Positions 10,738-35,248 of a stretch of DNA of 64,000 nt are shown here, one piece after another (position 1 is the first letter of the stretch; the number at the start of each line of letters is the position of its first letter). The stretch is from an uncultured virus (IMG/VR IMGVR_UViG_3300043438_001049) (Duplodnaviria; Heunggongvirae; Uroviricota; Caudoviricetes). The position numbers were made by a program, and so were the translations under genes. Where the stretch lies: IMG/VR virus record IMGVR_UViG_3300043438_001049; one strand, 5' to 3'. The notes beneath the pieces are model-generated. The model made no database searches, was not told the DNA's origin, and saw only the letters and a program-made list of their open reading frames with translations.

Positions 10738-10763
10738 ATCCTGAGCATGATTTAAAACTGCTC
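10738..10763 (+). ncRNA. Pseudoknot motif copy 1
   Basis: ATC-C-TGAGCA-T-GAT-TTAAAAC-TGCTC. Confidence 0.6.
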
Positions 10764-10784
10764 GATCTTTTAACAAAAAAAATG

Positions 10785-10967
10785 CACGTGTGACTTATCC
10801 ACAGGCTGTGTATAACTTTAAGTAGCATGTGATTTTTTTCACACTCTCTGAGCGTCTCATTATTTAAGACTACTCGCTAGTAGGTTGATAATTTATGACT
10901 AATAGGCTAGACTTACATAGTAAGAAAAAATAAATAAGCAAGATTTGTCAGACCCCTATGGTAGGAT
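10785..10967 (+). promoter_or_regulatory. Cassette header: CACGTG, inverted DnaA-box pair, CRP-type site, TGTCAG promoter
   Basis: CACGTG 10785; TTATCCACA 10795; TGTGTATAA 10807; TGTGA-N6-TCACA 10828; TGTCAG-N10-TAGGAT 10946-10967. Confidence 0.8.
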
Positions 10968-11001
10968 AAAGTTAATAACAAAAAAAGAAAGAGGTTGCCC
11001 A

Positions 11002-11208
11002 ATGGCTACTAAACTATACACAATACAGGATTTACTAATTGGTAAAAACTATCGTTCCCGTAATCGTCACTTTGAGGGAGAAATTATTTCTGCCTCTCCC
11101 CGCCCTGCAATTTGGTATGGAGAAAATACCGAAGCATATGTCATTGAAATCTATGACCGCACTTTGCGAAGTAAGTTTGCAACAGTAGCAGTAAAGGTTG
11201 GTGAGTAA
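11002..11208 (+). CDS. Hypothetical early protein
   Basis: ATG at 11002 with SD GAGG. Confidence 0.55.
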   Translation: MATKLYTIQDLLIGKNYRSRNRHFEGEIISASPRPAIWYGENTEAYVIEIYDRTLRSKFATVAVKVGE

Positions 11209-11429
11209 TGAATAACGAATACCTATACGCAGTAACAGTATCGTATGATAGTAACCCCGTTCATTGGACGGGTCGTTACTCTGATGCACTAAGTGCAGTT
11301 AATGCTTTCAACGAAATTGTTGATTGGGGATTTGCTGATGAATATTCAACAGTTAATTTATCTGAACCAAGTGGAAAGATGCACACCCGCACTTTCTATC
11401 GTGAAGGACGAAAGGTCGTAACAAAATAA
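11208..11429 (+). CDS. Hypothetical early protein
   Basis: Coupled ORF. Confidence 0.55.
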   Translation: MNNEYLYAVTVSYDSNPVHWTGRYSDALSAVNAFNEIVDWGFADEYSTVNLSEPSGKMHTRTFYREGRKVVTK

Positions 11430-11698
11430 TGGGAAGCGTAACTGCACTCGGTATTCAAGATACCGTACTTGATTTAGAAACACAATTAGCCTATCACTTA
11501 CAGGGTAATCACTATCCTCCAGTACCGCTATCTATGGTGCAACCTTGCATAGATGCTATTGACGCATACTATGATGAGGACTACCGCAGAGAGATAGATT
11601 TGCCTCAAGGAGTGTTGTGGCGTGGGCAGGTTACTGCACCAGCAGATGCAATAATTGAGCAACACCATTTATCTTTTTGGCTACCAGAGGAGGACTAA
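11429..11698 (+). CDS. Hypothetical early protein (NHYPPVP family)
   Basis: HLQGNHYPPVP...IIEQHHL. Confidence 0.6.
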   Translation: MGSVTALGIQDTVLDLETQLAYHLQGNHYPPVPLSMVQPCIDAIDAYYDEDYRREIDLPQGVLWRGQVTAPADAIIEQHHLSFWLPEED

Positions 11699-11932
11699 AT
11701 GTCTGATACAATAAACAATATGGAACTTAGATTTGCTGATAACTTAAAACCATCTCAACTTATAGAAGGCGATCTAATTAAGGTTGATGATGAATATGTA
11801 ACTATTGAAACCATTACAGAAAATGAAGATGGATTTAATATTTATACTAGAAATGATTTTAATGAAGAGGGTCACATTTATTTATTTGATGATGAAACTA
11901 TTGAGTGGTATGTATTCTTTGAAGAAGACTAA
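11699..11932 (+). CDS. Hypothetical acidic protein
   Basis: Adjacent ORF. Confidence 0.5.
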   Translation: MSDTINNMELRFADNLKPSQLIEGDLIKVDDEYVTIETITENEDGFNIYTRNDFNEEGHIYLFDDETIEWYVFFEED

Positions 11933-11971
11933 TCACTAAAGTATTTTTATGTGCTTCCCCGCATAAAAATG

Positions 11972-12040
11972 CACGTGGCGCCTGTGTGAGATTTATCACA
12001 TTTTAAGAATTTGACATTTATTCCCCCTGTATGCTAAGAT
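11972..12040 (+). promoter_or_regulatory. Cassette header: CACGTG, CRP-type site, TTGACA-18-TAAGAT promoter
   Basis: CACGTG 11972; TGTGAGATTTATCACA 11985-12000. Confidence 0.75.
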
Positions 12041-12353
12041 TAATTATGAAGAAAAATCCAGAGGAATTACGCAGGCTTATGGAATTACGCCGTAGCAATG
12101 CGGCCTCTGCCGTGCCCTCTAAGAAATCCTATAACCGTAGGAAATGTCAGTCCGAAATGCTACAATTAAAACAACAAGAAGGAGAATAGCCCCATGGGAA
12201 ATATCGCAGATGAATTCTATGATGAATACTATGCAACAACCTGCCCTGAATGTAAAGAAAATGCGGTAGACGCATATGAAGAAAAATGCACTCATTGTTT
12301 ACTAGAAGAAATGTCCGCAACCTATAACGAAGACATTGCTCTAGAAATGAGTC

Positions 12354-13094
12354 TTGGCCTTGACTACTAATACACTTAAACTAAAACGCTCTAAAGATAG
12401 AAAGGTTGCTAATGCCGTCACACCTAATGGAAAACAAGCAAGTATCGCAAATACCTTTGGCCTCCCTGCTGGAAAGGCTTTCTCGTGTCCTGGTGCCACG
12501 AGTGTATGTGAATCCGTATGCTATGCAGGAAAACTCGAAAAGATCTTCCCAACCGTAAAAGTTAACCTGCTACACAATTGGGCCCTGCTAAAAGACGCAG
12601 ACTATTTAACTATGCTTAATCTCATTGCTGAGATGATTGCTGATTTCAAGGCAGACTGTATCAAGAAAGACGCTCCTATGCTATTCCGTATCCACTGGGA
12701 CGGAGATTTCTTTAACGATACTTATACTACCGCATGGTCTGATGTAATCAAACTTAATCCTGATGTACAATTTTGGGTATACACTCGTGTTAAGTCTGCA
12801 GCACTAATCTTAAAAGACATTGATAATCTTAGTCTTTATTTTTCTGCTGATAGTGAGAATGTAAAAACTGCCGTTGATTTAAAAATTAACAGTGGTGTAC
12901 GCATGGCATACCTTGCTAAGAATTTTGCAATTGGTAAGGCAGACATAAAAGAAATGATTGGTAAGCCTGCTGCTAAGTGTCCTGAGAATAATAAACAGAT
13001 TCCACTTATCTCAACAAATGGAAGCGCTTGCGTTTCTTGCTCACTTTGTGTATACTCTAAGAGTGACATAATTTTTTCATCGAGTAAGAAATGA
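12354..13094 (+). CDS. Phage gp88-like Cys-rich protein
   Basis: FGLPAG..CPGA...C...CYA...FRIHWDGDF...FWVYTR...CP...C..C..C. Confidence 0.7.
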   Translation: MALTTNTLKLKRSKDRKVANAVTPNGKQASIANTFGLPAGKAFSCPGATSVCESVCYAGKLEKIFPTVKVNLLHNWALLKDADYLTMLNLIAEMIADFKADCIKKDAPMLFRIHWDGDFFNDTYTTAWSDVIKLNPDVQFWVYTRVKSAALILKDIDNLSLYFSADSENVKTAVDLKINSGVRMAYLAKNFAIGKADIKEMIGKPAAKCPENNKQIPLISTNGSACVSCSLCVYSKSDIIFSSSKK

Positions 13095-13333
13095 GATAAC
13101 ATGCGTAGTACTCAAGTTATACTTTTATTTTGGTTGTTGCTTCTTTTATTTTTCCACCAATAAAATAAAAGGGGCCACGTCGCCAAGATCGAGGTTTGTC
13201 AAGTTTATGATAGGCTTTTAAGATGTGATTAAGGACACACCGCAAATCCTCCGCTGGATTGGTATTTATGACATTTTTATGCTAAAATTATACTATAAGC
13301 AATTAACCCCCACAACAGAAAGGCAAGACCCAA

Positions 13334-13504
13334 ATGACACTACACGGATACACTTACCAAATTGGTGATTTATTCACAACAAGCAAGACAGGCGTTACAG
13401 GTCGTATTGCAGGATTTACACCAATGTCTAATAAGGTTACTAGAGTTAGTTTAATCCTAGCCAATGGCGCACAACGCCTTGCTATGGTCAAGACCTCTAA
13501 GTAA
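13334..13504 (+). CDS. Small SH3/KOW-like protein (paralog 1)
   Basis: 56 aa, below ORF-track cutoff: MTLHGYTYQIGDLFTTSKTGVTGRIAGFTPMSNKVTRVSL... Confidence 0.6.
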   Translation: MTLHGYTYQIGDLFTTSKTGVTGRIAGFTPMSNKVTRVSLILANGAQRLAMVKTSK

Positions 13505-13610
13505 TCTCACAATGTGAGAAATGTTAAGTTTCGATTTGACATTTTTATCTGCAAAATGTTATACTTAGGTATAACCAAATAACAACCCCTAAACAGAAAA
13601 GAGAAAAACA

Positions 13611-13775
13611 ATGTCAGTAGCAACAGCAACATACAAGGTAGGCGATACCTACACAACACAGAAGTCAAAAGTTAGCGGAGTAATTCAAGAAATTAACCCA
13701 CTACCAAATGGTAATGTGCGAGTTAAGTTAGATGTAGATGGAAAGCCACGCTACACAACTTGGACGGCTAAGTAA
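13611..13775 (+). CDS. Small SH3/KOW-like protein (paralog 2)
   Basis: 54 aa: MSVATATYKVGDTYTTQKSKVSGVIQEINPLPNGNVRVKL... Confidence 0.6.
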   Translation: MSVATATYKVGDTYTTQKSKVSGVIQEINPLPNGNVRVKLDVDGKPRYTTWTAK

Positions 13776-13786
13776 TACAAAACTAA

Positions 13787-13817
13787 CGACCTGAGTATGT
13801 CGGTGCAAAACTACTCA
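13787..13817 (+). ncRNA. Pseudoknot motif copy 2
   Basis: CGAC-C-TGAGTA-T-GTCG-GTGCAAAAC-TACTCA. Confidence 0.6.
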
Positions 13818-13860
13818 ACCACCCCCTAACAAATACCCCACAAAAGAAAAGAGAAAACAA

Positions 13861-14283
13861 ATGGCTAGAGGAAAAGCAATTTCGGTTAAAATCGCAACAC
13901 CAAAAATCATCAAGGCACTAGAGCAATCACTTGCTAAGTTAGAAGCAGACTACTCATCACAAGAAGCAAATGAAGCAAAGTACGAGAAGGCTCGCAAAGT
14001 ATGGCAGAAAGAAATTATTGACTATGCCGTAGCAAACATCAAGAAGGCAGAAAACTTCCGTACTAACTATCGTCATTGGTCAAACACTCTTAACATTGAC
14101 TTTGACTTAACAGTTACAGAAAAAGACATGCCTAAAGAGCCTGAGAAGGACTTTGTTACAATGCACCAACACTCATACAATGAGCAGAAAGCAGAAATCT
14201 CTAACGCAATCCGTATTCTGAAAATGACAGATGAGGAAACAGTAAATACTAGCACCTACAATGCGGTTGCTCAATACCTATAA
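13861..14283 (+). CDS. Hypothetical early protein
   Basis: 140-aa ORF with A-rich leader. Confidence 0.65.
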   Translation: MARGKAISVKIATPKIIKALEQSLAKLEADYSSQEANEAKYEKARKVWQKEIIDYAVANIKKAENFRTNYRHWSNTLNIDFDLTVTEKDMPKEPEKDFVTMHQHSYNEQKAEISNAIRILKMTDEETVNTSTYNAVAQYL

Positions 14284-14390
14284 ATGAAATTGGGGGAGGC
14301 GTAAAAACCTCCCTCAACTTTCGCCAGGCTGATTAGGGCGATAATAGAAATACTATAGAGCAAGGCTCCTGCAGGCCTAAAGAAGCAGAC

Positions 14391-14417
14391 ATCCTGAGCA
14401 CGATCCAAAAAGGCTCA
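14391..14417 (+). ncRNA. Pseudoknot motif copy 3
   Basis: ATC-C-TGAGCA-C-GAT-CCAAAAA-GGCTCA. Confidence 0.5.
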
Positions 14418-14491
14418 CCCTTAAGGGGACTTGACAAATGTCAGTGGCGCCCTGTACAATTAAATTAAACCAACTACAGAAAGAGGCCCCC

Positions 14492-14920
14492 ATGGACCAA
14501 ACAGAAGAATCAGTAACAGTAATACCAAACACAACGCAAGAATTCCTTTTATCTCAGATTAAAATAAAAGATGAGCGTATTGCTCAACTTGAAGAGCACA
14601 CTCAAAAGGTAACCCAGCGCTCTTATTCCGATTCAGCAGACCGTAACCGTATGGTTGAGGGAATGAAGGACTGGACCCTTAGTGAATTAAGTAATGAAGA
14701 CATCACTGAGTCTCAAGCAGAACAAATTGCTGAAATCATGGGCTTTGAATTAACAACAGAGTTTGAATTGGAAGTTACAGTTCTTTATTCAGTTACTGTT
14801 AATGCTCGTGATGAAGAGTCTGCACAGAATGTAATTCACGATATTGATTTTGATACCGTGCAATATGACTCAGATAATATTTCTTGGTTGTCTTCATCCG
14901 TTGATAGAATAGATATTTAG
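14492..14920 (+). CDS. Hypothetical acidic early protein
   Basis: ATG 14492 with SD GAGG. Confidence 0.6.
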   Translation: MDQTEESVTVIPNTTQEFLLSQIKIKDERIAQLEEHTQKVTQRSYSDSADRNRMVEGMKDWTLSELSNEDITESQAEQIAEIMGFELTTEFELEVTVLYSVTVNARDEESAQNVIHDIDFDTVQYDSDNISWLSSSVDRIDI

Positions 14921-14968
14921 TAGGGGGCTACTAATACAGACATATCGAATGTCTATAAACTAGGTAAG

Positions 14969-14997
14969 GGCCCTAAGCATGGCCATGTAAACTGCTT
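14969..14997 (+). ncRNA. Pseudoknot motif copy 4
   Basis: GGCC-C-TAAGCA-T-GGCC-ATGTAAAC-TGCTT followed by T-tract. Confidence 0.55.
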
Positions 14998-15018
14998 TTT
15001 CTTTTTTTACAAAATTTG

Positions 15019-15138
15019 CACGTGGGGTTTATCCACAGGTTTATCCACAGGCTGTGATTAAGATCACCTTTAAGAAATGTCCGAATTGCCCCATGTATAC
15101 TTATACGATTTGACTTTGTCAGTCCACCCATGTATACT
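15019..15138 (+). promoter_or_regulatory. Cassette header: CACGTG, tandem DnaA boxes, CRP-like site, promoter
   Basis: CACGTG 15019; TTATCCACA 15029 and 15041; TGTGA-N6-TCACC 15053; TTGACT-17-TATACT with TGTCAG 15110-15138. Confidence 0.8.
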
Positions 15139-15168
15139 TAGATTAACAACAACAGAAAAGAGAAACTC

Positions 15169-16185
15169 ATGGCACATGACCTAGAAACACAAAACGGCGT
15201 TGCATCATTTGCATCATTCCGTGAACCTGCTTGGCATGGATTGGGTACTGTATTCACAGAAGAAAAAACTACATCAGAAATGTTGGCGCTTGCTAATCTT
15301 TCTAATTGGAATGTTCGTCTTGAAGATTTAACAGTACCGACCCACTTATCATCAGATAAGAATTATCAATATGTATTGCGTACTAACCCTACAGATACAA
15401 CACAGACCGACATTCTTGGTGTCGTTGGTGAGCGTTACCATGTAATGCAGAATGAAGATTTATTCTCATTCGGTGACAACATTCTAGACGGCGGAGGCCG
15501 TTGGGAGACTGCTGGCTCAATTAAGGGTGGCCGTGTTGTGTTCGGTGCGTTGGCACTAGAGCGTGAGACTGTCCTAGACCCTAGCGGTGTTGCCGATAAG
15601 GTAAAGACTTATTTACTTATCAACACATCACATGATGGCTCAATCGCTATTCAAGCAAGCATCACACCTGTTCGTGTTGTGTGCGCTAACACTCTCAATC
15701 TTGCTCTTGGCTCAATCAAGAAAAAGAATGGCGTCAAGCAATCATTCAAGATTCGTCATACACAGACTGCAAGCGGTAAGGTTGCCGTTGCTCGTGAGAC
15801 TCTTGGAATGGCTAACAAGTACATGGACGCATTTGATATTATGGCTAAGGCTATGATTGAAAAAGAAGTCAATGCTAAGCAATTCAATGATATTGTATTG
15901 GCTGCATATGCAAAACCAGAAACAGATGCTAAGGGTTCGCTAAAGAAGTGGGAAAATAAAATTGATTCAATCAATGATATTTACACAGGCGAGTTTAATG
16001 GTATGATTGCTGGTAGTGCTTGGGGTGCTTTCAATGCACTAACCGAACGCCTTGACTGGTATCGTTCTGCTCGTGGTGGTTCTAACGAATCAATCCTTGC
16101 ATCAGCATCAGGATTTGACCCTGCTATCAATGCAGAAAAGAATCGTTTGCTAAAAGTTGTACAAAATGTAATGCAACTCGCATAA
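15169..16185 (+). CDS. DUF932 / TIGR03299 phage-plasmid-like protein
   Basis: REPAWHGLG...WETAGSIKGG...NTSHDGS...TPVRVVCANT...KIRHT. Confidence 0.85.
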   Translation: MAHDLETQNGVASFASFREPAWHGLGTVFTEEKTTSEMLALANLSNWNVRLEDLTVPTHLSSDKNYQYVLRTNPTDTTQTDILGVVGERYHVMQNEDLFSFGDNILDGGGRWETAGSIKGGRVVFGALALERETVLDPSGVADKVKTYLLINTSHDGSIAIQASITPVRVVCANTLNLALGSIKKKNGVKQSFKIRHTQTASGKVAVARETLGMANKYMDAFDIMAKAMIEKEVNAKQFNDIVLAAYAKPETDAKGSLKKWENKIDSINDIYTGEFNGMIAGSAWGAFNALTERLDWYRSARGGSNESILASASGFDPAINAEKNRLLKVVQNVMQLA

Positions 16186-16191
16186 CAAAAA

Positions 16192-16219
16192 AATCCTAAG
16201 CATGATTCTAAACTGCTTG
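16192..16219 (+). ncRNA. Pseudoknot motif copy 5
   Basis: AATC-C-TAAGCA-T-GATT-CTAAAC-TGCTTG. Confidence 0.6.
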
Positions 16220-16224
16220 CAATG

Positions 16225-16314
16225 TTTAATGGTCAGGCGCAGGTAAGAGTGCTAAGGGCTCGGAGGGTTGCGCGGATACAAACCCCCGAAATTAATAGTC
16301 ACACCGCCATTAAA
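16225..16314 (+). ncRNA. Candidate structured RNA upstream of tRNA-Asp
   Basis: TTTAATGGT/GCCATTAAA closing stem with internal GC-rich hairpins. Confidence 0.4.
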
Positions 16315-16321
16315 CTTAATT

Positions 16322-16395
16322 GGAGTGTTAGCATAGTTGGTTAATGCGCTACCCTGTCACGGTAGAGATCACGGGTTCAAGTCCCGTACACTTCG
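16322..16395 (+). tRNA. tRNA-Asp (GTC)
   Basis: GGAGTGT/ACACTTC acceptor, CTACC-CTGTCAC-GGTAG anticodon arm, GGTTCAAGTCC T-arm. Confidence 0.92.
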
Positions 16396-16863
16396 CAAAA
16401 TCGCCACGTGTGGAAATTAGTACAAATCGGACATAAAAATGTCAAATAAAATAAACTTTACGATAGTCAAACCTTTTCCCCAAAAATGTCAAACCTAAAA
16501 ATCTTTACGATAGAGTTGACATTTCCCCCAATCTCTGCGATAATTAATACATGACCCAAACAATGAGAACGATTGACGAATTAGTCAATGAGATGTACAT
16601 GGACAATGAGCCACATCTCGAATACATGGAGAATATGAACGGTGGGGATTGTGATTGTAACATCCACACTACCTTGAACACAATAGTCAAATACTGGTGG
16701 GATGAGGAGAACTAATGTTAGGCTATGAACTATCAGACTTAGATATGATGATTGCTAATGTAAACATTGCCTCTAAACAATTAAACAACTCAGGTATTGC
16801 TAAAGGTTTGGAAGAAGTTTCTTCATTCCTCCAGGGACTATGGGCAGAAGGGTACTTTGACTA

Positions 16864-17151
16864 ATGTGGAGCAAGTATACATTTGTTTGTGACCCTGATG
16901 AGTGTGACGCTCTTCTTGAGTTTACCGCTAGAGATGGCTTTGGCTTTCCCCTGGGATCTGTAGAGATGAAATGCCCATGTGGACGCTGGATGGCTTACAT
17001 TAGCATTGAAGAGGTTTGGTCCCCCATCATTGATACTATAGAGATGCTTAATGATTTTAAGAAGCAAGCAGGCATAGCCATAGACTCTTTGGATGTGATG
17101 AAGGTCACACCCCCACAACTTGTAAAAATCAACACCAACCCGTATAATTAA
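16864..17151 (+). CDS. Small Cys-rich protein
   Basis: CDPDEC...CPC. Confidence 0.5.
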   Translation: MWSKYTFVCDPDECDALLEFTARDGFGFPLGSVEMKCPCGRWMAYISIEEVWSPIIDTIEMLNDFKKQAGIAIDSLDVMKVTPPQLVKINTNPYN

Positions 17152-17299
17152 TATATGGACCTAAACACATTCCGAGAATATATCCGATTGCATGCCATAT
17201 CCCTTGAACAGGATTTGGAAAACGAGGACGGTGCTGATAGCATTGTTCCTTATCTTGAAGGAGCCATTAATGTATCCCGCCACTATTTGGAGGTAACCA

Positions 17300-17587
17300 A
17301 TGAACGATAACACTACCCTTGACCCATACCTAATGAAACTAGTAGAACTTGGTATGGACGGAGCAGATATCCTGCACGGTCACCTTAAAGTTTTAATGGT
17401 TGAGGCAGAGAAGCAATTAGACCTGTGCATTGAAGCAGAGGAGTATTCAGAAGAAGCAATGGACTCAATGGCTCGTACAGAGGCTTCAGGCTATTTTGAC
17501 GCACTGTGTGAGGTCTATGCCCTAACTTATGCTATCGCTTTTGCCAAGGAAGAAGTAAAGAACCGCAAGGAGATTCTTGGTGAATAA
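17300..17587 (+). CDS. Hypothetical protein
   Basis: SD GGAGG. Confidence 0.6.
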   Translation: MNDNTTLDPYLMKLVELGMDGADILHGHLKVLMVEAEKQLDLCIEAEEYSEEAMDSMARTEASGYFDALCEVYALTYAIAFAKEEVKNRKEILGE

Positions 17588-18020
17588 CGAACGCTTTATA
17601 GAAATGACTGAGGAAGAATGGTTTGAGACTTATAAGCCTGTTAAGAATCATCTTGAAACCACATCTTCATTTGACGGACACATGTTTGAGACATATGGCT
17701 CAGAGGTAGAGTTTGTTAAGTCTATCCCTGAAGACCGTATCTGGATGCTTGGAGACGGTGACGACGGTGGTATGTACATCTGGAACGGCTGGGGATTTGT
17801 AAATAGAATAGGATACTTTGTCACTGAGGTACCCTGCCCACCTGACACGACTATTCAGGTCCAAGTAGGTATACCTTGGTATTACTGTGAGGCCTGTGAC
17901 TCAGAATGGGAAGACCCTGATAATCTTATTAGAGATGCCTTCCAAGAAGAGGATTTGGAAAAATGCCCTAACTGTGCTACCATTGAAGAAATGACCCTAG
18001 TAGGATTGGATAACAAATGA
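17577..18020 (+). CDS. Hypothetical protein with C-terminal Zn ribbon
   Basis: FETYG...FVNRIGYFVTE; CEAC...CPNC. Confidence 0.6.
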   Translation: MVNNERFIEMTEEEWFETYKPVKNHLETTSSFDGHMFETYGSEVEFVKSIPEDRIWMLGDGDDGGMYIWNGWGFVNRIGYFVTEVPCPPDTTIQVQVGIPWYYCEACDSEWEDPDNLIRDAFQEEDLEKCPNCATIEEMTLVGLDNK

Positions 18021-18720: not shown

Positions 18721-18812
18721 GGAGTGGGTCCTCTAGATTATAGGGTGGAAGGGGCAGGCGTGGGGCTTGCTCTTTCCCCCACTTTTTGGTACAATAGATA
18801 CAAGGGAGAACT

Positions 18813-19260: not shown

Positions 19261-19262
19261 CT

Positions 19263-19961: not shown

Positions 19962-19963
19962 CT

Positions 19964-20512: not shown

Positions 20513-20565
20513 ACAAATATTGTACCATAATTGACCTGTGGATAACTCTATGATATGATAGATAT

Positions 20566-26341: not shown

Positions 26342-26416
26342 ATTTACATTATATCATTATTCGCTGTCAAAATTATCAATTTGACACAGACTTTAATTTT
26401 TGATATAATAGATAAT

Positions 26417-27868: not shown

Positions 27869-27876
27869 TTATAAAA

Positions 27877-28593
27877 TTAAGAAATGTAAGGAAGTTTTTC
27901 TCTTTCAACCATTTCGTCTGGTAATATAACCAGTTGATCATTTTTCTTTAGTGGGTCTAGCCAAGTTTCTTCTATACGAGAAGGGTCTGCTGTTTGAAGT
28001 TTATATTCTTCAGTACCATAATTGTTAAAAGTTCCTGGATTTTTAATTGCTTCTAAACAAAAGTTTGAATATGAGTATCTTGATCCAGAAAGGACTGGTT
28101 TAACTCCATGAGCATAATCTTCTAATGCGCCATGAATAACTAAATCCCCTGGCTGAACGGGTACAACTATGTCTTGTTTTGGATAAAAAACTTCTCCTCC
28201 AGTAAACTCCCCAAAGTAAACACAAACTCCAAATTCTAATAGGCAACATGTTGACCATATGTCTGGTAATGTTAGGTTTTCATGATTTCCTTCACCAGGA
28301 CTATCCCAATGAGGTTCCATTCCTGCGCCCTCTTTATAATGAAGCATGCTTAACAATGGGTGAACAACATATTGTGGAGCAAGTAGTTCAGAAACCTTTT
28401 CCCAAACAGGAAAAACTTCTGGGATAGATTCTGTGACACCGTAGTTTACCACTCCAAATGGGTGTTTTGTAGATTTATCTTCTCGCTCTTTTAATACTTT
28501 ATTTACAAAATCAACCTCTTCCTTACTAATAAAATTAGGAATGTAATAGAGTTTCTCGTCTAGCCTTTGAAGGTTTGGATGTGATATAGTCAT
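27877..28593 (-). CDS. 2OG-Fe(II) prolyl-4-hydroxylase-like oxygenase
   Basis: HWD...FTGGEVFYP...HGV..V.SGSR; leaderless start 28593. Confidence 0.8.
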   Translation of the reverse strand: MTISHPNLQRLDEKLYYIPNFISKEEVDFVNKVLKEREDKSTKHPFGVVNYGVTESIPEVFPVWEKVSELLAPQYVVHPLLSMLHYKEGAGMEPHWDSPGEGNHENLTLPDIWSTCCLLEFGVCVYFGEFTGGEVFYPKQDIVVPVQPGDLVIHGALEDYAHGVKPVLSGSRYSYSNFCLEAIKNPGTFNNYGTEEYKLQTADPSRIEETWLDPLKKNDQLVILPDEMVEREKLPYIS

Positions 28594-28667
28594 GACTTTA
28601 TTATAGCACAATTTTTAGACTATACTTCAATATATTCCCGATTTTAGGCCTATGGTATAATTGTAAT

Positions 28668-29468
28668 ATGAGACAATGCACCTGTGGTAGGTCAAAAACC
28701 TATCCCTATTGTGACAATACTCACAAAACAAAGGTAAATTCTGAAGATCTCACCCCCTCCTCAACCGACAACAACATAAGAGAAACTATATTATCAAAAA
28801 TGAAAGAATCAGATAAAACTGGCAAAGTTTTATTTTTAAAAGGTTTTATGAGTCAATCTCCTGAATGGGGTGATTTTGTTGGCTTAATAAATCATCAATA
28901 TAATAACCCAATAATTGATGAAGTAAGTGAAAATATCTATGATGAATCAAAAAAAGAAGAACATGGGGATCACGGGCCAAAGATTTTGTTAAATAATAAC
29001 AACAAAAGTACAAACATGTATTCATTAAAAAAATTAGATTTACATGTTTTACGTATAAAGCAAATAAATTTTTCCATACAGACACCTTCTTTTGAACATA
29101 GTTGGTACAACATGCCATATCTTGATAATTTTTTATCTATATTCTATAAACAGGATATGCTAAACACTGTAAAGTCTTTAATAAATTTTGCTGGAAATGA
29201 ATATGTTGGAACTGGTCATTCAGATAGGCAGTCTGTCGTTTCTTGGACATGCGCTGGAGAAGTTGAATATAGAATTTATCATATTAAAAACAGTACAGAA
29301 AGAGATTCATTAACTTATGAACAACAAAGAACTTTGACTTATGATTCATACATTATGAAACCTGGAGATGTTATGTATATACCTATTGGTGTTTTTCATA
29401 GTGCTGTTGCAAATTTTCCAAGAGCATCTTTAATTTTAGACTATGACGTTTTAAATACACAAGGATAA
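28668..29468 (+). CDS. CDGSH Fe-S finger fused to JmjC/cupin domain
   Basis: CTCGRSKTYPYCDNTH; HSD...MKPGDVMYIPIGVFH. Confidence 0.75.
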   Translation: MRQCTCGRSKTYPYCDNTHKTKVNSEDLTPSSTDNNIRETILSKMKESDKTGKVLFLKGFMSQSPEWGDFVGLINHQYNNPIIDEVSENIYDESKKEEHGDHGPKILLNNNNKSTNMYSLKKLDLHVLRIKQINFSIQTPSFEHSWYNMPYLDNFLSIFYKQDMLNTVKSLINFAGNEYVGTGHSDRQSVVSWTCAGEVEYRIYHIKNSTERDSLTYEQQRTLTYDSYIMKPGDVMYIPIGVFHSAVANFPRASLILDYDVLNTQG

Positions 29469-29472
29469 ACAT

Positions 29473-30261
29473 ATGCCAACTAGACTTACTTTAAATGGTT
29501 TTACTATAAACCCTGTGACACATCTTCCTCATTTAATAAATATTTTTAGAGGACTTACAGAATATAGCATAAAACATAAGTGCGATACAGGATCAGACGG
29601 GCCAATACATAAAAACTATTTAGGAAAGCCAATTTTTGGACCTGTAGGAACAAAAATACCAGATATAGATTCTGATAATGCTGGAAGTATTGTTCAAGGT
29701 ATCCTAGAAAATGGATACTATTCTTGTAGAATTTGGGAAAACTGTTACCCTGCAAAAATTCAATTTGATCTTTTTTTAGAAAATGATTTGCCTGATATTG
29801 ACCTAATCATAGATCATTTTTCTGCTCCTGCTATTCCTCAAGACGGTCTTGGGCTTTTTGATTATACCTATTCTATAAGTAAAACTAAAGAACATACAAC
29901 AACATTACAAAAAGATAGAGATAAAGATTCGGCATATGATGTCAATGATTTGATTGCCTTTGATAAAGATGGTGAATGGTCTGTTACTTTAAACAGATTA
30001 AAGGCCCCTGAATGTTATTTTTGTAATAAAAAACCTGAACACTGGATATCTCTAAATAAAAGGACTGACAAGAATCATACAGATTGGATTTCTGTTTTGT
30101 CTTGTTCAAATCACAAATATTTAGGAAAAACAATAGAAGATGTGTATTCTGGAAATGTTGATCAATATTATTCAAATCTAGATGATAAAATTTACGTTAT
30201 AAAAGAAATTAAAAATGAAAATAATGAAGTTATGTTTACAGTAAATGTGCTAGAAGAATAA
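29473..30261 (+). CDS. AdoMet decarboxylase-like fold (apparently inactive) plus Zn finger
   Basis: GILENGYYSCRIWENCYPAKIQFDLF aligns with SpeD IETSH..H.W.E..PA..QFD.; CYFC...C..H. Confidence 0.45.
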   Translation: MPTRLTLNGFTINPVTHLPHLINIFRGLTEYSIKHKCDTGSDGPIHKNYLGKPIFGPVGTKIPDIDSDNAGSIVQGILENGYYSCRIWENCYPAKIQFDLFLENDLPDIDLIIDHFSAPAIPQDGLGLFDYTYSISKTKEHTTTLQKDRDKDSAYDVNDLIAFDKDGEWSVTLNRLKAPECYFCNKKPEHWISLNKRTDKNHTDWISVLSCSNHKYLGKTIEDVYSGNVDQYYSNLDDKIYVIKEIKNENNEVMFTVNVLEE

Positions 30262-30314
30262 AATAAATTAATGAAGGTTGACATTTATTTGATTATTTGC
30301 TATAATTGAACTAT

Positions 30315-30388
30315 GCACCAGTAGCCAAGTTGGTTAAGGCACCGAACTCATAATTCGGCTATCGTAGGTTCAAGTCCTACCTGGTGTA
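30315..30388 (+). tRNA. tRNA with CAT anticodon (Met or Ile2)
   Basis: GCACCAG/CTGGTGT, CCGAA-CTCATAA-TTCGG, GGTTCAAGTCC. Confidence 0.9.
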
Positions 30389-30400
30389 CAATTAAGTAAT

Positions 30401-30471
30401 GAGAATATTGAATATTGGTAGCACTTCTGCCTTCCAAGAAAAAGGGGCAAGTTCAATTCTCATCATCCGCT
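30401..30471 (+). pseudogene. Decayed tRNA-Gly (TCC)
   Basis: CTTCCAA anticodon loop, GTTCAATTC T-loop and CATCCGCT 3' end retained; stems broken. Confidence 0.65.
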
Positions 30472-30490
30472 CAAAATATTTAGGAGGAGT

Positions 30491-31228
30491 ATGAAGTTTC
30501 ATTGGATGCTAAATGGGTCATACTCAACTAGCAATATATTAAAAACAGTTGTTGAAGGTCTTGGCAGTAATAGATACGAGTCAATACTTTTAACATTTCA
30601 ATTAGATCAAAATGAACCAATGGTTTCAGCAATGTTTTTAACAAACAATTTTCCAAATCAAAGGTTTATGATAGCAGTTAGACCCTACACCATTTCTTCC
30701 AGACATTTATCCATGATAGCAAAAACATTTTATGACTACTTTAATAATAAACTAATTATTAATTTTGTTTCTGGAACATATGATAATGAGTATGAACTTT
30801 TTACAAATAAAACTTCTACACGTGAAGAACGTAAAGATGAATTATCTGGGTACATCAAATCATTTGTTGAAGATTTAAAGGGTACACTATATTCTGATAT
30901 TGCGATAAGTGGTGCAAGTGATAAGTTAATCAGTTTATGCTCTGAGTTCTCTGCAATAAACATAGCACTCATTCAAGACTTAGACAAACTAAACAAAGAC
31001 AATAATATAATGCTTAGAGTATCAATAGGTATTGATGTAGATAAGTCTCAAATGACTACAGATAGAGAATTTAATAACTCTATATGTGGTACAGAAGACT
31101 ATATTATTAATAAAATAAAAGAACTTGAGGCAATGGGGATAACCGACATATTGATTTCAAATACATATGAAAACATTACAGAAATAGATAAGACAAATGC
31201 TTTAGTTGACAGATACAAGTCGCTATAG
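30491..31228 (+). CDS. Luciferase-like (LLM) flavin-dependent monooxygenase-like protein
   Basis: FMIAVRPYTIS...IINFVSG...ISGAS...ICGT...I.EL..MGITDI. Confidence 0.7.
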   Translation: MKFHWMLNGSYSTSNILKTVVEGLGSNRYESILLTFQLDQNEPMVSAMFLTNNFPNQRFMIAVRPYTISSRHLSMIAKTFYDYFNNKLIINFVSGTYDNEYELFTNKTSTREERKDELSGYIKSFVEDLKGTLYSDIAISGASDKLISLCSEFSAINIALIQDLDKLNKDNNIMLRVSIGIDVDKSQMTTDREFNNSICGTEDYIINKIKELEAMGITDILISNTYENITEIDKTNALVDRYKSL

Positions 31229-31300
31229 TATAATTATAATAAGGGTAAGATAAGAAAGTTGGTGCAAATCCAACCTACCCTACTAACAGAAAGAGAAAAA

Positions 31301-31837
31301 ATGAAAACAGTTGGAGATAAGTTAGGTAACTTTGCAGTAACTGGAGTTAAACCTGGAGCATTAACATATGATGATTCATCATTTGAAACTATAACACAAG
31401 ATTCTTTTCCAGGAAAATGGAAAATAATTATGTTTTATCCAAAAGACTTTACATTTGTATGCCCAACAGAAATTGTTGCATATGATGCTTTAGTTAATGA
31501 TTTTAATGATCGTGATACAGTCCTTATGACTGGATCAGTTGATAATGAATTTTGTAAGATTGCATGGCGTAATGCTCATGACGATCTTAAGAGAACTAAC
31601 TCATGGTCATTTGCAGACACAGCACATCAACTGGCTGGAGATCTTGGAGTTCATCACTCATCTGGAGTTGCTTATCGTGCAACCTTTATTGTTGATCCTG
31701 ACAATACTATTCAGCATGTAACTGTTAATAACCTTGATGTAGGTCGTAATGCAGATGAAGCACTTCGAGTTCTTGATGCCCTGCAAACTGGAGAACTTTG
31801 TGCATGCAATAGACCGCTAGGTGGAGACACTTTATAA
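31301..31837 (+). CDS. ahpC: Peroxiredoxin AhpC
   Basis: FYPKDFTFVCPTE...GRNADEALRVLDALQTGELCAC. Confidence 0.92.
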   Translation: MKTVGDKLGNFAVTGVKPGALTYDDSSFETITQDSFPGKWKIIMFYPKDFTFVCPTEIVAYDALVNDFNDRDTVLMTGSVDNEFCKIAWRNAHDDLKRTNSWSFADTAHQLAGDLGVHHSSGVAYRATFIVDPDNTIQHVTVNNLDVGRNADEALRVLDALQTGELCACNRPLGGDTL

Positions 31838-32349
31838 TGACTTGGGTTGAACAATTAAACGAAAACCTTCCCGAATATGCCAAAGATATTAGGCTTAATC
31901 TTGATGCTGTAATTAACAGATCTACCATTGATGCTAATGATGCATTGTATATTGCAATTGCAGCAGCATTTGCAACTGGTAATTCAAAACTACTTACATT
32001 TTTGGTATCTAATGCAACAGATGAAGTAGAAAAAAATGCTGCACTATCTGCTGGCGCTATTATGGCACAAAATAATACATGGTATCCATATGTAGAAATG
32101 GCTGGGGATGCAAACTTAAAAGGCTTACCAGCCCAACTAAGAATGAATGCTATTACTTCTCATGGTGGAACAACTAAGGGTAAGTTTGAAGCCTACTCTT
32201 TATCGTCTTCAATCATAGGAAAATGTCATTTCTGTGTTAAAGCACACTATGATACATTAAAACAAGAAGGTTACAGTGTTGATCAATTACGTGATATTGG
32301 ACGAATTTCTGCAACCATCAATGCATTAGCAAAGATACTTTCAGCATAA
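31837..32349 (+). CDS. ahpD: Alkyl hydroperoxide reductase AhpD
   Basis: LPEYAKDIRLNL...GKCHFCVKAH; coupled to ahpC. Confidence 0.9.
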   Translation: MTWVEQLNENLPEYAKDIRLNLDAVINRSTIDANDALYIAIAAAFATGNSKLLTFLVSNATDEVEKNAALSAGAIMAQNNTWYPYVEMAGDANLKGLPAQLRMNAITSHGGTTKGKFEAYSLSSSIIGKCHFCVKAHYDTLKQEGYSVDQLRDIGRISATINALAKILSA

Positions 32350-32354
32350 AAAAA

Positions 32355-32381
32355 AGTCCTGGGTATGACTAAAACTGCCTA
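32355..32381 (+). ncRNA. Pseudoknot motif copy 6
   Basis: AGTC-C-TGGGTA-T-GACT-AAAAC-TGCCTA immediately after ahpD stop. Confidence 0.6.
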
Positions 32382-32422
32382 ACAACTAACACATTAACTG
32401 TAAAGTGTAGTATAATGGTTTT

Positions 32423-32566
32423 ATGGAATCAAATATCTGTAAAGTTTATGAGCATATTTTTAGTGTAGATAAAGACAGTGTGCTCAAGTGTGAAAAATGT
32501 AACAAAACATATATGCAATATATGGATGAGATTGAAGAGCATCTTAAAGGATATAGAAAGTTTTAA
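32423..32566 (+). CDS. C-x4-H...CxxC microprotein (copy 2, convergent with Gpx-like gene)
   Basis: 47 aa read from sequence; leaderless promoter. Confidence 0.5.
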   Translation: MESNICKVYEHIFSVDKDSVLKCEKCNKTYMQYMDEIEEHLKGYRKF

Positions 32567-32573
32567 TTTAAAA

Positions 32574-33197
32574 CTATTTTGCTAATGCGTTTTCTATATC
32601 ATTACAAATTCTGATGTATGCTAAATCTGCTCTGCCAGCCTTCTCAGAATAATTTAGCAGTGCTCCATTATCATAATTTTTTAATAATTTTCCATCTTTT
32701 CCTACCAAATATTTTTCAAAATTACCGCCCAAAGTTCCTCCACCATCTGCAGATGTTGGATCCTTCTTCCAAAGTTCCTCTGACATTTTGCATAAAACAT
32801 TATAAACTTCATGAGGAGTAACCTTACCATGTTTAGATGGCAATCCTGGGATAAGTTGGTTTTCGCAAGGGTTAGATTCAATTAATTCAGTAAACTTGTA
32901 TGTGACTCCATAATTTGTTTTTGCAAATTCTCTTGCTGATTCTGCAGTGTCTGTTCCATAAACATGATCTCCATACGTTAAACCAACGCCACAATAATCA
33001 TTGGTTGGAATAGCAATTACTTCAAAACCTTTATCTTTGTATTTTCTGTATATTGTTTCAATAACTCCATATTGAGGAGCATTACCACAGTCACCAGTAA
33101 CATTAATAATCAAAGTTACTTTCCCTTTAAAGTTATTTAAAAAATCCTCTTCTTGATCTGCGGACTTAATCTTTACATCATATACAGACATATACAT
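32574..33197 (-). CDS. Glutathione peroxidase-family protein (paralog 2)
   Basis: FKGKVTLIINVTGDCG, PTNDY, NFEKYLV. Confidence 0.85.
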   Translation of the reverse strand: MYMSVYDVKIKSADQEEDFLNNFKGKVTLIINVTGDCGNAPQYGVIETIYRKYKDKGFEVIAIPTNDYCGVGLTYGDHVYGTDTAESAREFAKTNYGVTYKFTELIESNPCENQLIPGLPSKHGKVTPHEVYNVLCKMSEELWKKDPTSADGGGTLGGNFEKYLVGKDGKLLKNYDNGALLNYSEKAGRADLAYIRICNDIENALAK

Positions 33198-33280
33198 CTC
33201 CTTTTGTGTTTCTTAAGCAATTATACCTCCCTTTTTTAATTTATGATATACTATAAAAGGTGGTAAAACTGCTTAATAAT

Positions 33281-33353
33281 ACCTTTGTAGTTCAGTGGAC
33301 AGAACGATGGACTTCTAAGCCATGCGTCGCAAGTTCGATTCTTGCCAGGGGTA
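33281..33353 (+). tRNA. tRNA-Arg (TCT)
   Basis: ACCTTTG/CAGGGGT, ATGGA-CTTCTAA-GCCAT, GCAAG-TTCGATT-CTTGC. Confidence 0.85.
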
Positions 33354-33491
33354 CTTTACTTTTTAGGATGCTTTACTTCGTATGGTGCAATCTTAGACTT
33401 AATACGACCATCTTTATATAATCTAACAATCCAACCGTCTTTGATCTGAACAGGATTAAACGCTGCTGCTTTTTTCTTTGGCATTATATAA

Positions 33492-33773
33492 TTATATCAT
33501 ACCGTTAAGCCTGTTGTGTGTCCTGATCCTGTGGCAGTTAGCACAAACCACTTCACACTTTTCAATCTCTTTCTTTATAGCCCTCCATGAAAAACCATCA
33601 TGGATCATTCTCGATACATTATATTTCTTGTCTCTTATGTGATCAAAGTCTAAGATTATATGGTTACCAACCCCACAGTCTACACAGCCAGAATCCTCTT
33701 TTATCTTAGCAAGCATCTTCTTATACTGCTGCTTGTTATAATTTTCCAACTCTTTTTCAGTCATTGCTATCAT
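33492..33773 (-). CDS. HNH endonuclease
   Basis: CVDCG...LDFDH...KCEVVCANCHRIRT. Confidence 0.85.
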   Translation of the reverse strand: MIAMTEKELENYNKQQYKKMLAKIKEDSGCVDCGVGNHIILDFDHIRDKKYNVSRMIHDGFSWRAIKKEIEKCEVVCANCHRIRTHNRLNGMI

Positions 33774-33793
33774 TATACCGTGAAAATATTAAG

Positions 33794-33877
33794 GCCCCAC
33801 ACAGGCAATTCACCTGACTTGCGCCACGGTCTCTATCCAATGGGTAACTATGCCATCGCTAAGGTCCTATGTGGGAC
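33794..33877 (-). ncRNA. Candidate ~85-nt structured ncRNA
   Basis: 12-bp terminal stem; TGATATAAT 6 nt upstream of 5' G. Confidence 0.55.
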
Positions 33878-33895
33878 AATTAAATTATATCATCA

Positions 33896-34435
33896 TTACA
33901 TGTATAGGCTACTGTAACAATCTTTTGTGTATACTTTATTTGTAGTAAAACAAAATGTCATGGCATACCTGACTCCACTTGTAACTTCTTCAACATAGTG
34001 CATAGACTCATCTCCATGAGATGGAAAAGTTATTGAAACACCTTTTGATGGTTTTATTTTAACAATATTTTTTTGATTTGGAAAGACAATTTGACCACCT
34101 TCATATTCATCGTCAAAATAAACTAGCATACCAAGAATATCTTCATCACAACCTTTTTGAATATCAGAATGCAAGCACATACTATCTCCTACATTATATT
34201 TCACAATTGCTGATGAGTGAATGTATATATCTTTTTCTAATATTTTTTTTATTTTTTCAGTATAGAGTGAAACAAGAGTAAGGAAATCTAAATCATACTG
34301 ATCCTGAAATAATGTTGTATACCTATCTCCCTTATTGTTACCTCTATAAAGACCTTCTAATTTTTTAAATATTTGTAAAGCATAAACAATTTCTTCTTCT
34401 GTAGTAAAATTATAATATTGTTTTATCATTATCAA
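33896..34435 (-). CDS. 2OG-Fe(II) prolyl-4-hydroxylase-like oxygenase
   Basis: HSD...YEGGQIVFP...HYV..V.SG.R. Confidence 0.85.
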   Translation of the reverse strand: MIMIKQYYNFTTEEEIVYALQIFKKLEGLYRGNNKGDRYTTLFQDQYDLDFLTLVSLYTEKIKKILEKDIYIHSSAIVKYNVGDSMCLHSDIQKGCDEDILGMLVYFDDEYEGGQIVFPNQKNIVKIKPSKGVSITFPSHGDESMHYVEEVTSGVRYAMTFCFTTNKVYTKDCYSSLYM

Positions 34436-34557
34436 CCTTATATATTAAATCTGAAGAAGTTCCAAAATATCTAGATGGCAAAACTGACAGTCTGTTAGGG
34501 TCAAAGTCATTATTCATGTATATATTATAGCAGTTTCTAGTATGATATAATTAATAT

Positions 34558-35133
34558 ATGCATATATCGAGACCATTTAATAATGAAATTGTCGTAGTTG
34601 AAAACTTTTTGACTCAAGATGAGGCTGACTACATTCTTGATTTAGCAACAAAAGACATTTCCTTGTGGGATGCCTCAAATGATGGATCTGGACTTACAGA
34701 GCAATATGGCAATAGGCTACAAATTGACGAATACAATTTAAGAGATAGGTATCGTGACTACAATTGGTTCTTTAAAATGCTTGAAGAAAGAGCAAAGCCG
34801 ATATTTTCTAAAGAATATGGTATTTCAGATTTTTCTTTTTTACCAATAACCTCAATTTTTAGAAGAACGGGTCATGGACTGGATGTTCATACTGATGAAG
34901 TTGATAAAGATCACCCTCAATATGATGCATCTCTACCAATTATTACTCACGGTTTTGTAGTTTATATTAACAATAACTATAGTGGTGGAGAAATTTTTTA
35001 TCCAAAAAAAAATATAATTATGAAACCAAAGGCTTTGTCTTTAGTTATGCATCCTGGAAATAAAGAATACGAACATGGAGTTAATGACGTAACGAAAGAA
35101 ATAAGATATAATCTTGCTTGGTGGACTAGATAA
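34558..35133 (+). CDS. 2OG-Fe(II) prolyl-4-hydroxylase-like oxygenase
   Basis: HTD...YSGGEIFYP...HGV..V...R. Confidence 0.85.
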   Translation: MHISRPFNNEIVVVENFLTQDEADYILDLATKDISLWDASNDGSGLTEQYGNRLQIDEYNLRDRYRDYNWFFKMLEERAKPIFSKEYGISDFSFLPITSIFRRTGHGLDVHTDEVDKDHPQYDASLPIITHGFVVYINNNYSGGEIFYPKKNIIMKPKALSLVMHPGNKEYEHGVNDVTKEIRYNLAWWTR

Positions 35134-35142
35134 CACAAAGAA

Positions 35143-35248
35143 TGAGCAGTTTATAGACCTGCTCAGGTCCCCCAGGTAGCGATCCTGGGCTTATCCGTAC
35201 TCAGCAATAGGGTTGCTATAAGCAACTGCATGTATCATGACGGAATAA
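35143..35248 (-). ncRNA. Candidate ~105-nt structured ncRNA ending in pseudoknot motif copy 7 (35143-35169)
   Basis: TATAAT upstream; three stems plus GAC-C-TGAGCA-G-GTC-TATAAAC-TGCTCA. Confidence 0.55.

Follow-up and report, generated by a model that had tools for sequence, protein, structure and literature searches.

The question raised by the locus described here is what a small folded RNA might do when it recurs behind the genes of a phage. The locus is a 64-kb stretch of DNA (64,000 nucleotides (nt), 36% G+C; hereafter the window) from an uncultured lake-water phage (IMG/VR record IMGVR_UViG_3300043438_001049) that encodes three transfer RNAs (tRNAs), a DnaE-like polymerase, a UvsX-like recombinase and a terminase. 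The element in question is a compact H-type pseudoknot (hereafter the knot) that is present in the window in seven copies. It belongs to a family that is very widespread in phages and bacteria and uncatalogued, and whose members may act as directional roadblocks within messages.

Seven copies of the knot and the support for its two helices

The knot is 27–31 nt long and contains two helices, P1 and P2. In each copy the 5' strand of P1 (P1a, 3–4 nt, ending in C) is followed by a bridging C, the 5' strand of P2 (P2a, U-R-R-G-Y-A, where R is A or G and Y is C or U), one junction base and the 3' strand of P1 (P1b, beginning with G); the 3' half consists of a linker ending in AAAC and the 3' strand of P2 (P2b, U-R-C-Y-Y), mostly with an A after it. 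In the consensus form, an 8-nt loop (C, UGAGCA, W) pairs with UGCUCA located behind an NNAAAC linker. When both strands of the window were searched with a regular expression for the consensus, exactly seven matches were found, at the positions that an initial annotation of the window had reported, whereas 200 dinucleotide-preserving shuffles gave a mean of 0.37 matches (maximum 2). The nearest record (G001), which represents the same phage, carries the same seven copies; a megablast search of a phage collection found no close relative of the window, and a distant blastn search with the window returned short gene matches only. The copies are as follows (ORF, open reading frame; bits are the score of each copy against the R1 model).

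10738..10764 (+), PK1: P1a 10738-10740, bridging C 10741, P2a 10742-10747, junction base 10748, P1b 10749-10751, linker 10752-10758, P2b 10759-10764; P1 is ATC/GAT; 46.6 bits; 14 nt past the stop of the ORF at 10427-10723 (+).
13787..13817 (+), PK2: P1 is CGAC/GTCG, P2 is UGAGUA/UACUCA and the linker ends in AAAAC; 32.8 bits; 11 nt past the ORF at 13611-13775, with the next ATG at 13861.
14391..14417 (+), PK3: P1 is ATC/GAT, with a variant linker (AAAAAG) and P2b GCUCA (five pairs); 33.3 bits; 107 nt past the upstream ORF stop, with a small hairpin behind it as well as a sigma-70-like promoter (14431-14460).
14969..14997 (+), PK4: P1 is GGCC/GGCC and P2 is AAGCA/UGCUU, with a U-run behind; 25.8 bits; 48 nt past the upstream ORF stop, with a promoter-like site at 15110-15138.
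16192..16219 (+), PK5: P1 is AAUC/GAUU and P2 is UAAGCA/UGCUUG; 39.1 bits; 6 nt past the ORF at 15169-16185, with tRNA-Asp 102 nt downstream.
32355..32381 (+), PK6: P1 is AGUC/GACU and P2 is UGGGUA/UGCCUA (two G·U pairs); 33.2 bits; 5 nt past the ORF at 31837-32349, the next long ORF being convergent.
35143..35169 (-), PK7: P1 is GAC/GUC and P2 is UGAGCA/UGCUCA; 38.1 bits; 88 nt past the ORF at 35258-35527 (-), the next long ORF being convergent.

The P1 and P2 pairs listed in the initial annotation are present as written in all copies, and both the 8-nt loop and the bridging C are found in seven of seven. The A-rich linker ends in AAAC in six copies and in AAAAAG in PK3. Five of the seven copies are within 50 nt of the stop of the nearest upstream same-strand ORF (14, 11, 48, 6 and 5 nt for PK1, PK2, PK4, PK5 and PK6), and PK3 (107 nt) and PK7 (88 nt) are further away. 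(Note that a weak match at 33253..33280 (+), which abuts tRNA-Arg and scores 14.9 bits with an E value of 0.038, contains the 3' half UAAAACUGCUUA only and was not counted as a copy because it has no P1 or P2a.)

Helix P1 was assessed in 218 distinct instances that had not been selected for pairing. (This set and the viral sets used below, of 125–127 and 146 instances, were drawn from the matches listed in collection scans.) Pairs 2, 3 and 4 of P1 were formed in 217, 214 and 145 of these instances, respectively, and U·A, A·U, C·G and G·C pairs are all used; P1 is strongly supported. Helix P2 was tested with a covariance model that encoded P1 only; searching multi-copy phages and the window with it gave 62 distinct matches. 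Among these, the four inner pairs of P2 had no unpaired cell, and ten cells were changed on both sides (GAGUA/UACUC, AAGCA/UGCUU, GGGUA/UGCCY and GGACA/UGUCC). The pair that closes the loop is C·G in seven of seven window copies and in 61 of the 62 matches, the remaining one, a weak match, having flipped to G·C. P2 is thus supported, though less cleanly than the initial annotation had claimed: four of its pairs are firm, and at two further Y·R positions A·C is tolerated. The covariation of P2 described in that annotation is weakened at the R/Y positions, where A·C mismatches are frequent.

The bases behind P2 provide separate support for the fold. G is rare at both of the two bases that follow it (2 of 127 instances each), which supports a knot over a plain hairpin, since a G there would pair with the bridging C and undo P1. 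Nearest-neighbour energies are low for both helices, ranging from +1.6 to -7.0 kcal/mol for P1 alone and from -2.0 to -5.6 kcal/mol for P2 alone, so that any action of the element must depend either on its tertiary structure or on some partner; the conservation of its sequence despite such weak helices argues for a tertiary fold.

Distribution of the family and placement of its members

The commonest form of the motif was found in IMG/VR at no fewer than 134 loci, comprising 146 listed instances, of which 130 have at least three consecutive P1 pairs and 103 share the same 24-nt spacing; across the viral collections, all scans but one listed at least 116–134 loci. Seven viral loci (L002, L003, L046, L061, L070, L086 and L102) have no junction base, P1b following P2a directly to leave a 7-nt loop, and these are scored as unpaired by the P1 counter and are among the 15 of the 146 instances that were classed as having no P1. 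With a stricter pattern and one genome per prokaryotic species, at least 118 loci were found where about four would be expected by chance (a rough estimate from the size of the collection), and P1 has three or more pairs in 114 of the 119 bacterial instances listed. Bacterial carriers include Saccharibacteria, Chloroflexota, Actinomycetota, Desulfobacterota, Bacillota, Bacteroidota, Cyanobacteria and Omnitrophota, among others, and among the named viral carriers are cyanophage S-RIM4 and Mycobacterium phage Labelle, each of which has a single strong copy. Copy number per phage ranges from 1 to 8; complete phage genomes of about 100 kb have 1–7 copies, mostly clustered within 3–6 kb, and ten bacterial genomes have a single copy apiece, the exception being a phage-like contig that has four.

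Neither the gathering threshold of Rfam 15, at which the window yielded only its three tRNAs, nor permissive searches (E up to 10 for 10 loci and E up to 1 for 16 loci) placed any family on the knot, including preQ1, SAM-II, pistol and HDV-like models, in agreement with the initial annotation, which had recognised no named family. In the literature searched on phage pseudoknots and on coremin in phages and bacteria (coremin is introduced below), we found no description of the element, and the paper on phage Patience does not mention it. A catalogue of viral structured RNAs (PMC10690425) was covered in passages, and its supplementary tables, which lay outside our search, could list the element as an unnamed candidate. 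In two metagenome-assembled genomes, of a member of the Leptolyngbyaceae (L181) and of the Cloacimonadota (L182), the knot lies between direct repeats that by eye resemble those of clustered regularly interspaced short palindromic repeats (CRISPR); these copies seem to be spacers taken from knot-bearing phage DNA.

Relatives of the window copies lie outside coding sequence and on the strand of the genes. Counting same-strand frames of at least 30 codons that end before the knot, we found an upstream ORF in 113 of 125 viral instances, its stop lying 5–10 nt before P1 in 53, 0–4 nt before P1 in 7, and at a UGA inside the knot in 14. Frames on the same strand traverse the knot in just 2 of 126 viral and 5 of 110 bacterial instances, P1 being poor in four of the latter; antisense frames were left out of the count, since shadow frames make their assignment unreliable. 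These counts bear out the earlier description of a structured element on the gene strand. When the A site of a ribosome holds the stop codon, the mRNA enclosed by that ribosome extends about 5 nt behind the codon; with a spacing of about 5 nt or more, therefore, a terminating ribosome need not unwind the knot.

On the downstream side, 79 of 127 instances have a start codon on the same strand that leads into an open frame, most often 19–30 nt behind the knot, and a tRNA gene lies 3–13 nt behind it in 16 of 127 (11 of them tRNA-Asp, largely homologues of the PK5 arrangement); no tRNA gene was found upstream of the knot among those instances. In eight loci, seven in Bacillota genomes (L164, L178, L214, L217, L222, L237 and L244) and one on a viral contig (L030), an RNA matching the Rfam DUF2800 motif (RF02960, 55–157 bits) starts on the base after the knot, which may represent a so far unrecognised 5' module in the context of that motif. 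Because tRNAs at 3–13 nt, the DUF2800 RNA at 0 nt and start codons at 19–30 nt leave no room for a promoter, transcription must pass through the knot. Many bacterial copies have an ordinary hairpin terminator within 10–20 nt downstream, and a terminator scan of the window found no canonical terminator at any of the seven sites; U-rich runs are present behind PK1, PK4 and PK7 and absent behind PK2, PK3 and PK6. Thus the knot is often internal to a longer transcript and outside its translated part, and cannot be described simply as the end of a transcript or as a canonical terminator. The position at transcript 3' ends given in the initial annotation had been deduced, and it does not agree with the tRNAs and start codons that follow the knot in relatives; nor does the suggested non-canonical terminator agree with an RNA that begins on the very next base, or with U-runs that stand behind only some of the window copies. 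Flanking genes are heterogeneous, with no common function, and no associated transposase or nuclease gene was seen among them.

A 16-kb contig binned with Polynucleobacter (L148/L259) carries four knots within 1.4 kb. Directly behind one of these (L148) is a type III hammerhead that scores 41.2 bits, below the Rfam cut-off of 48.5, and that has its cleavage site, a GUC, at 5 nt behind the knot.

Resemblance to coremin and a candidate roadblock

The closest known counterparts of the knot are coremin and its Watson-Crick variant; with coremin it has in common a core made up of a short hairpin with a C·G closing pair, a single-C bridge and AAAC-U(R)C. Coremin is an RNA resistant to the exoribonuclease Xrn1 (xrRNA-C) that is found in beet necrotic yellow vein virus, cucumoviruses and other eukaryotic RNA viruses (PMC6546385, PMC10520033). 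It requires a hairpin of 3–5 base pairs (bp), hp1, with a C·G closing pair (U·A is tolerated and G·C fails; PMC6546385), a loop of the form YGAD (4 nt) or YGNNAD (6 nt) whose first base can only be C or U (PMC6546385, PMC10520033), and a spacer for which AAA, CU and AC are indispensable (UUAAACUAC; PMC6546385, PMC10520033); some coremins with heptaloops and one with an octaloop still resist Xrn1 (PMC10520033). A second hairpin, hp2, of at least 4 bp and directly behind the spacer, is strictly necessary for Xrn1 resistance (PMC6546385, PMC10321173). Coremin has been modelled as a small H-type pseudoknot with the first loop base as a one-base bridge and pairs 6-20, 7-19 and 8-18 (PMC10321173); it stalls Xrn1 and scanning ribosomes, promotes -1 frameshifting, and has been screened in Escherichia coli (PMC10520033, PMC10321173).

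The phage element can be superimposed on this description in several respects. P1 corresponds to hp1 (3–4 bp with a C·G closing pair) and the bridging C to base 5 of coremin. The proposed register maps to C15-G32, A16-U31 and W17·C30 of the phage element, C15-A16-W17 facing C30-U31-R32; the loop keeps its first Y and its final A-D, with W being T or A in 186 of 218 instances. The spacer is about 5–6 bases long and ends in AAA, followed by C-U-(A/G)-C. AAA-C-U is present in six of the seven window copies (note that the patterns used for the collection scans fixed AAA-C-U and could therefore reveal no variation there), and the full coremin-type AAACUAC is found in PK2 and in at least 119 viral loci, the consensus form being AAACUGC, with G for A. 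Moreover, both elements occur as tandem or multiple copies outside coding sequence. They differ in that the phage loop has four extra bases, which make Watson-Crick pairs with four bases after the spacer, and in that the hosts of the phages are bacteria, which have no Xrn1. In the variant represented by PK3 (14385-14422 in the window), AAAA-G replaces AAAC-U before GCUCA, altering both positions equivalent to the essential C18-U19 of coremin; this variant accounts for 4 of the 62 distinct matches, the others being phage loci L272:2690-2727, L277:575-612 and L274:1587-1624.

The Watson-Crick variant of coremin, xrRNA-WCC, is known from laboratory hits and from SPlV5 (Sanxia picorna-like virus 5; PMC10321173). 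The variant is an antiparallel canonical pseudoknot between the hp1 loop and the spacer, an arrangement shared by the inner four P2 pairs of the phage element (no unpaired cell in 61 sequences). The loop and spacer of SPlV5 (GGAG/CUCA) resemble GAGC/GCUC of the phage element, the bridge is an essential single base, and the variant stimulates frameshifting without hp2. In contrast to the phage element, its second stem (S2) has three pairs rather than 5–6 and its bridge is G rather than C, and its Xrn1 resistance still needed hp2 (PMC10321173).

Two further classes of element share some of these properties. The first is that of the luteoviral -1 frameshifting pseudoknots. In the structures of these knots, an A-rich third loop (L3) ending in an AAAC-like sequence lies in the minor groove of the first stem (S1), resembling the phage linker. 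The knots of beet western yellows virus and potato leafroll virus are also very small and of the H type, have a first loop (L1) of one or two bases with a C, and, like the phage knot, are placed 5–10 nt behind the codon in the ribosomal A site (discussed in PMC10321173). However, the upstream codon in the phage case is a stop codon rather than a slippery heptamer, such sites having been sought by eye at two window copies, no extended frame is apparent behind the phage knot, and the stem lengths are reversed, with a short S1 and a long S2. The second class comprises intrinsic terminators and T7-type intercistronic RNase III sites, which occupy the same slots (behind ORFs and before the next promoter or cistron); unlike these, the phage knot has no G+C-rich hairpin or consistent U-run, its helices are too short for RNase III, and its sequence is conserved across unrelated phages.

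On the basis of this likeness and of its placement, we favour, as a tentative reading that falls somewhat short of probable, a knot that would act as a directional mechanical roadblock and delimit stable RNA segments of phage messages. The knot would be a small, tertiary-stabilised obstacle within multi-gene messages, placed just past the reach of the ribosome terminating on the preceding gene so that normal translation would never unwind it. It would halt machines moving 5' to 3' (exonucleases of the RNase J type, RNase E as it scans, or ribosomes that stay on the message) and would thereby delimit and shield the RNA downstream, be it the leader of the next cistron, a tRNA or another folded RNA. 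The nuclease barrier or processing signal suggested in the initial annotation is strengthened by the resemblance to Xrn1-resistant coremin; shielding gains because RNA worth keeping (a tRNA, the DUF2800 RNA or a start codon) follows closely. A further and more doubtful proposal is that the knot could be the first prokaryotic family of knots that block exoribonucleases and ribosomes, a portable 27-nt 'xrRNA' whose core would be common with the coremin of plant and fungal RNA viruses by descent or convergence and in which extended loop-to-tail pairing would replace the second hairpin. Phages of many phyla, and some bacteria, would on this proposal insert it behind genes to obtain message segments of differing stability. 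If the knot does block RNA-degrading enzymes or ribosomes, it would be a general and unrecognised punctuation mark of phage gene expression, with carriers that range from cyanophages, actinophages and gut phages to ultra-small bacteria. Exonuclease-resistant RNAs, until now a feature of eukaryotic RNA viruses alone, would then be connected with the decay of bacterial mRNA (by RNase J and scanning RNase E), and the knot would offer a 27-nt, host-independent part with which to stabilise or insulate RNA segments in engineered operons.

Several observations weigh against this reading, and others qualify the account of the fold. With respect to coremin, the phage loop is 8 nt long (C-UGAGCA-W) and has U in place of the required G at position 2. 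More importantly, a hairpin in the place of hp2, 0–4 nt behind P2, is found in 11 of 126 viral and 8 of 111 bacterial instances, fewer than at control offsets (19 and 31 for the viral set, 16 and 19 for the bacterial one). We therefore rejected a second hairpin behind the phage knot and, because hp2 is needed for Xrn1 resistance and is absent, did not file the element as a member of coremin. The lengthened P2 may take the place of hp2, which raises the question of whether the coremin fold is sufficient without a second hairpin when the pseudoknot stem is lengthened.

With respect to the fold itself, a descriptor that ignores sequence performed at chance level in the window (1217 matches, compared to 1083–1242 in 10 shuffles), and the specificity of the element therefore lies in sequence plus fold. 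Variation in P2 consists of transitions at R/Y positions only, where three of four combinations pair anyway, which weakens the covariation. Strict pairing at two P2 positions is further weakened because A·C 'mismatch' classes are abundant in scans for variants: AAGCA with UGCUC, uncompensated, is found at 89 loci (a complete scan), and GAGCA with UACUC at no fewer than 119 viral loci. (Note that both of these classes keep P1 intact, in 66 of 67 and 80 of 81 distinct instances, respectively.)

With respect to function, RNase J is encoded in 23 of 40 knot-bearing genomes, no more than in named controls (10 of 14). A dependence on RNase J was accordingly rejected, and if a nuclease is blocked it would not be RNase J alone. 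Behind PK6, PK7 and many bacterial copies there is either no gene in the same orientation or just a canonical terminator, and cuts behind the knot, by tRNA processing or by the L148 hammerhead, would make the knot the 3' terminus of the upstream RNA, which fits protection of the upstream message equally well. Finally, contigs from four metatranscriptome runs contain the knot in relatives of 90–99% identity, but are uninformative on ends, strand and transcription and thus carried no information on RNA ends.

Protection of the upstream message is the alternative that survives best, although we regard it as unlikely. Transcription would read through the knot, the RNA would be cut downstream (at a tRNA by RNase P, or else by an endonuclease or a ribozyme), and 3'-to-5' trimming would then proceed as far as the knot, which would set and stabilise the 3' end of the preceding gene's message. 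Such a role would suit the closeness of the knot to the preceding ORF, its persistence at the ends of units without a co-oriented gene (PK6, PK7 and bacterial copies before terminators) and, in the window, its position between an ORF and the next sigma-70-like promoter where a canonical terminator is lacking. Exonucleases need a tail, and the tails of 3–13 nt or 5 nt that cleavage at a tRNA or at the L148 hammerhead would leave behind the knot would be too short. The weak helix energies argue against it, as does the behaviour of exoribonuclease-resistant RNAs of this kind, which are reported to be directional and to block from the 5' side only (PMC11702639); in addition, a further 3' barrier would seem superfluous at sites that have a canonical terminator hairpin behind the knot.

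Four other explanations are less likely than either a roadblock or protection of the upstream message. Binding of a small molecule or of a conserved protein, in the manner of a riboswitch or an operator, would account for the high conservation of the unpaired bridging C and of AAAC across distant hosts, and small pseudoknot aptamers such as preQ1-I resemble the knot in size and topology. This is nevertheless improbable, given flanking genes with no common function, copies that precede tRNAs and other RNAs, 1 to 8 copies per phage, and no match to any Rfam riboswitch model. A riboswitch was rejected for want of gene association, and the ligand-binding module proposed in the initial annotation finds nothing in the heterogeneous flanking genes to favour it.

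If P2 were to form as its 3' strand leaves the polymerase, the knot might instead replace a terminator hairpin and act as a leaky, non-canonical terminator or attenuator. The U-rich runs behind PK1, PK4, PK7 and some viral instances would suit this, as would the location of the window knots between ORF ends and the next promoter with canonical terminators absent. T is present at only about 40–46% at the nine bases behind the knot, however, PK2, PK3 and PK6 have no U-run, RNAs and start codons follow too closely for an intervening promoter, and a separate canonical terminator stands behind many bacterial copies, so that we consider termination quite improbable. (A sigma-70 promoter as the identity of the knot was also rejected, the spacing of the conserved halves being wrong by inspection.)

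That the knot is a very small self-cleaving ribozyme, or an RNase P substrate mimic, that cuts messages at gene borders is very unlikely, although it occupies intergenic slots in which ribozymes occur (as exemplified by the L148 hammerhead, itself below the Rfam cut-off), its fold is autonomous and its conservation is independent of the host. To our knowledge, at 27 nt and with two short helices it would be smaller than any natural self-cleaver. ACCA, which follows P2 in some instances, is found in a minority (14 of 127), and the adjoining hammerhead would be redundant if the knot cut itself; a tRNA-like acceptor mimic was rejected on the same count. Lastly, a DNA-level element, whether a single strand that folds or a site for a protein, with a role in replication, recombination or mobility, is scarcely credible: the motif is portable, clustered (3–8 copies within 3–6 kb) and present in apparent CRISPR spacers, but its copies are co-oriented with genes and lie 5–10 nt behind same-strand stops, same-strand ORFs almost never run through it, G·U is tolerated in its stems, and no transposase or nuclease gene was seen with it.

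Other features near the knots

Near-perfect promoters of the form TTGACA-17/18-TATAAT are present on the + strand of the window at 13536, 14431, 16516, 21606, 22358, 25127, 26381, 30278 and 31206, and one of them directly precedes tRNA-Met; consensus sigma-70-type promoters are numerous in the window. This dense series suggests many short early transcription units. PK1 and PK4 have a downstream module in common (10784-10803 and 15018-15049), in which GCACGTG is followed by one or two TTATCCACA(GG) boxes, which we take to equal the DnaA-box consensus. These modules stand ahead of the next genes, and similar boxes are located behind knots in L185, L212 and L256.

In bacteria, two protein-coding associations were seen. 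The first is a conserved mini-gene of about 20 codons with its own Shine-Dalgarno sequence, whose UGA stop is the UGA inside the knot and which is usually followed by an ordinary terminator. It is found in several phyla and in unrelated neighbourhoods, matches no Pfam or NCBIfam family, and encodes the peptide M-K/R-K/R-F/Y-x-I/V-P-R-x-A-H-C-S/D-E/D-G-C-x-x-x-S. Its loci are as follows.

L161:224-283 (-), mini-gene ending inside the knot.
L168:224-283 (-), mini-gene ending inside the knot.
L228:143-202 (+), mini-gene ending inside the knot.
L245:143-202 (+), mini-gene ending inside the knot.
L203:143-202 (+), mini-gene ending inside the knot.
Eleven more bacterial loci carry the mini-gene.

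The second is found in Saccharibacteria, where the knot lies 7–12 nt behind a family of small, secreted-looking proteins of about 129 amino acids with no Pfam domain, encoded at L260:1538-1927 (-), L267:1545-1934 (-) and L269:1096-1485 (+), the latter two proteins being 61% and 27% identical to the first.

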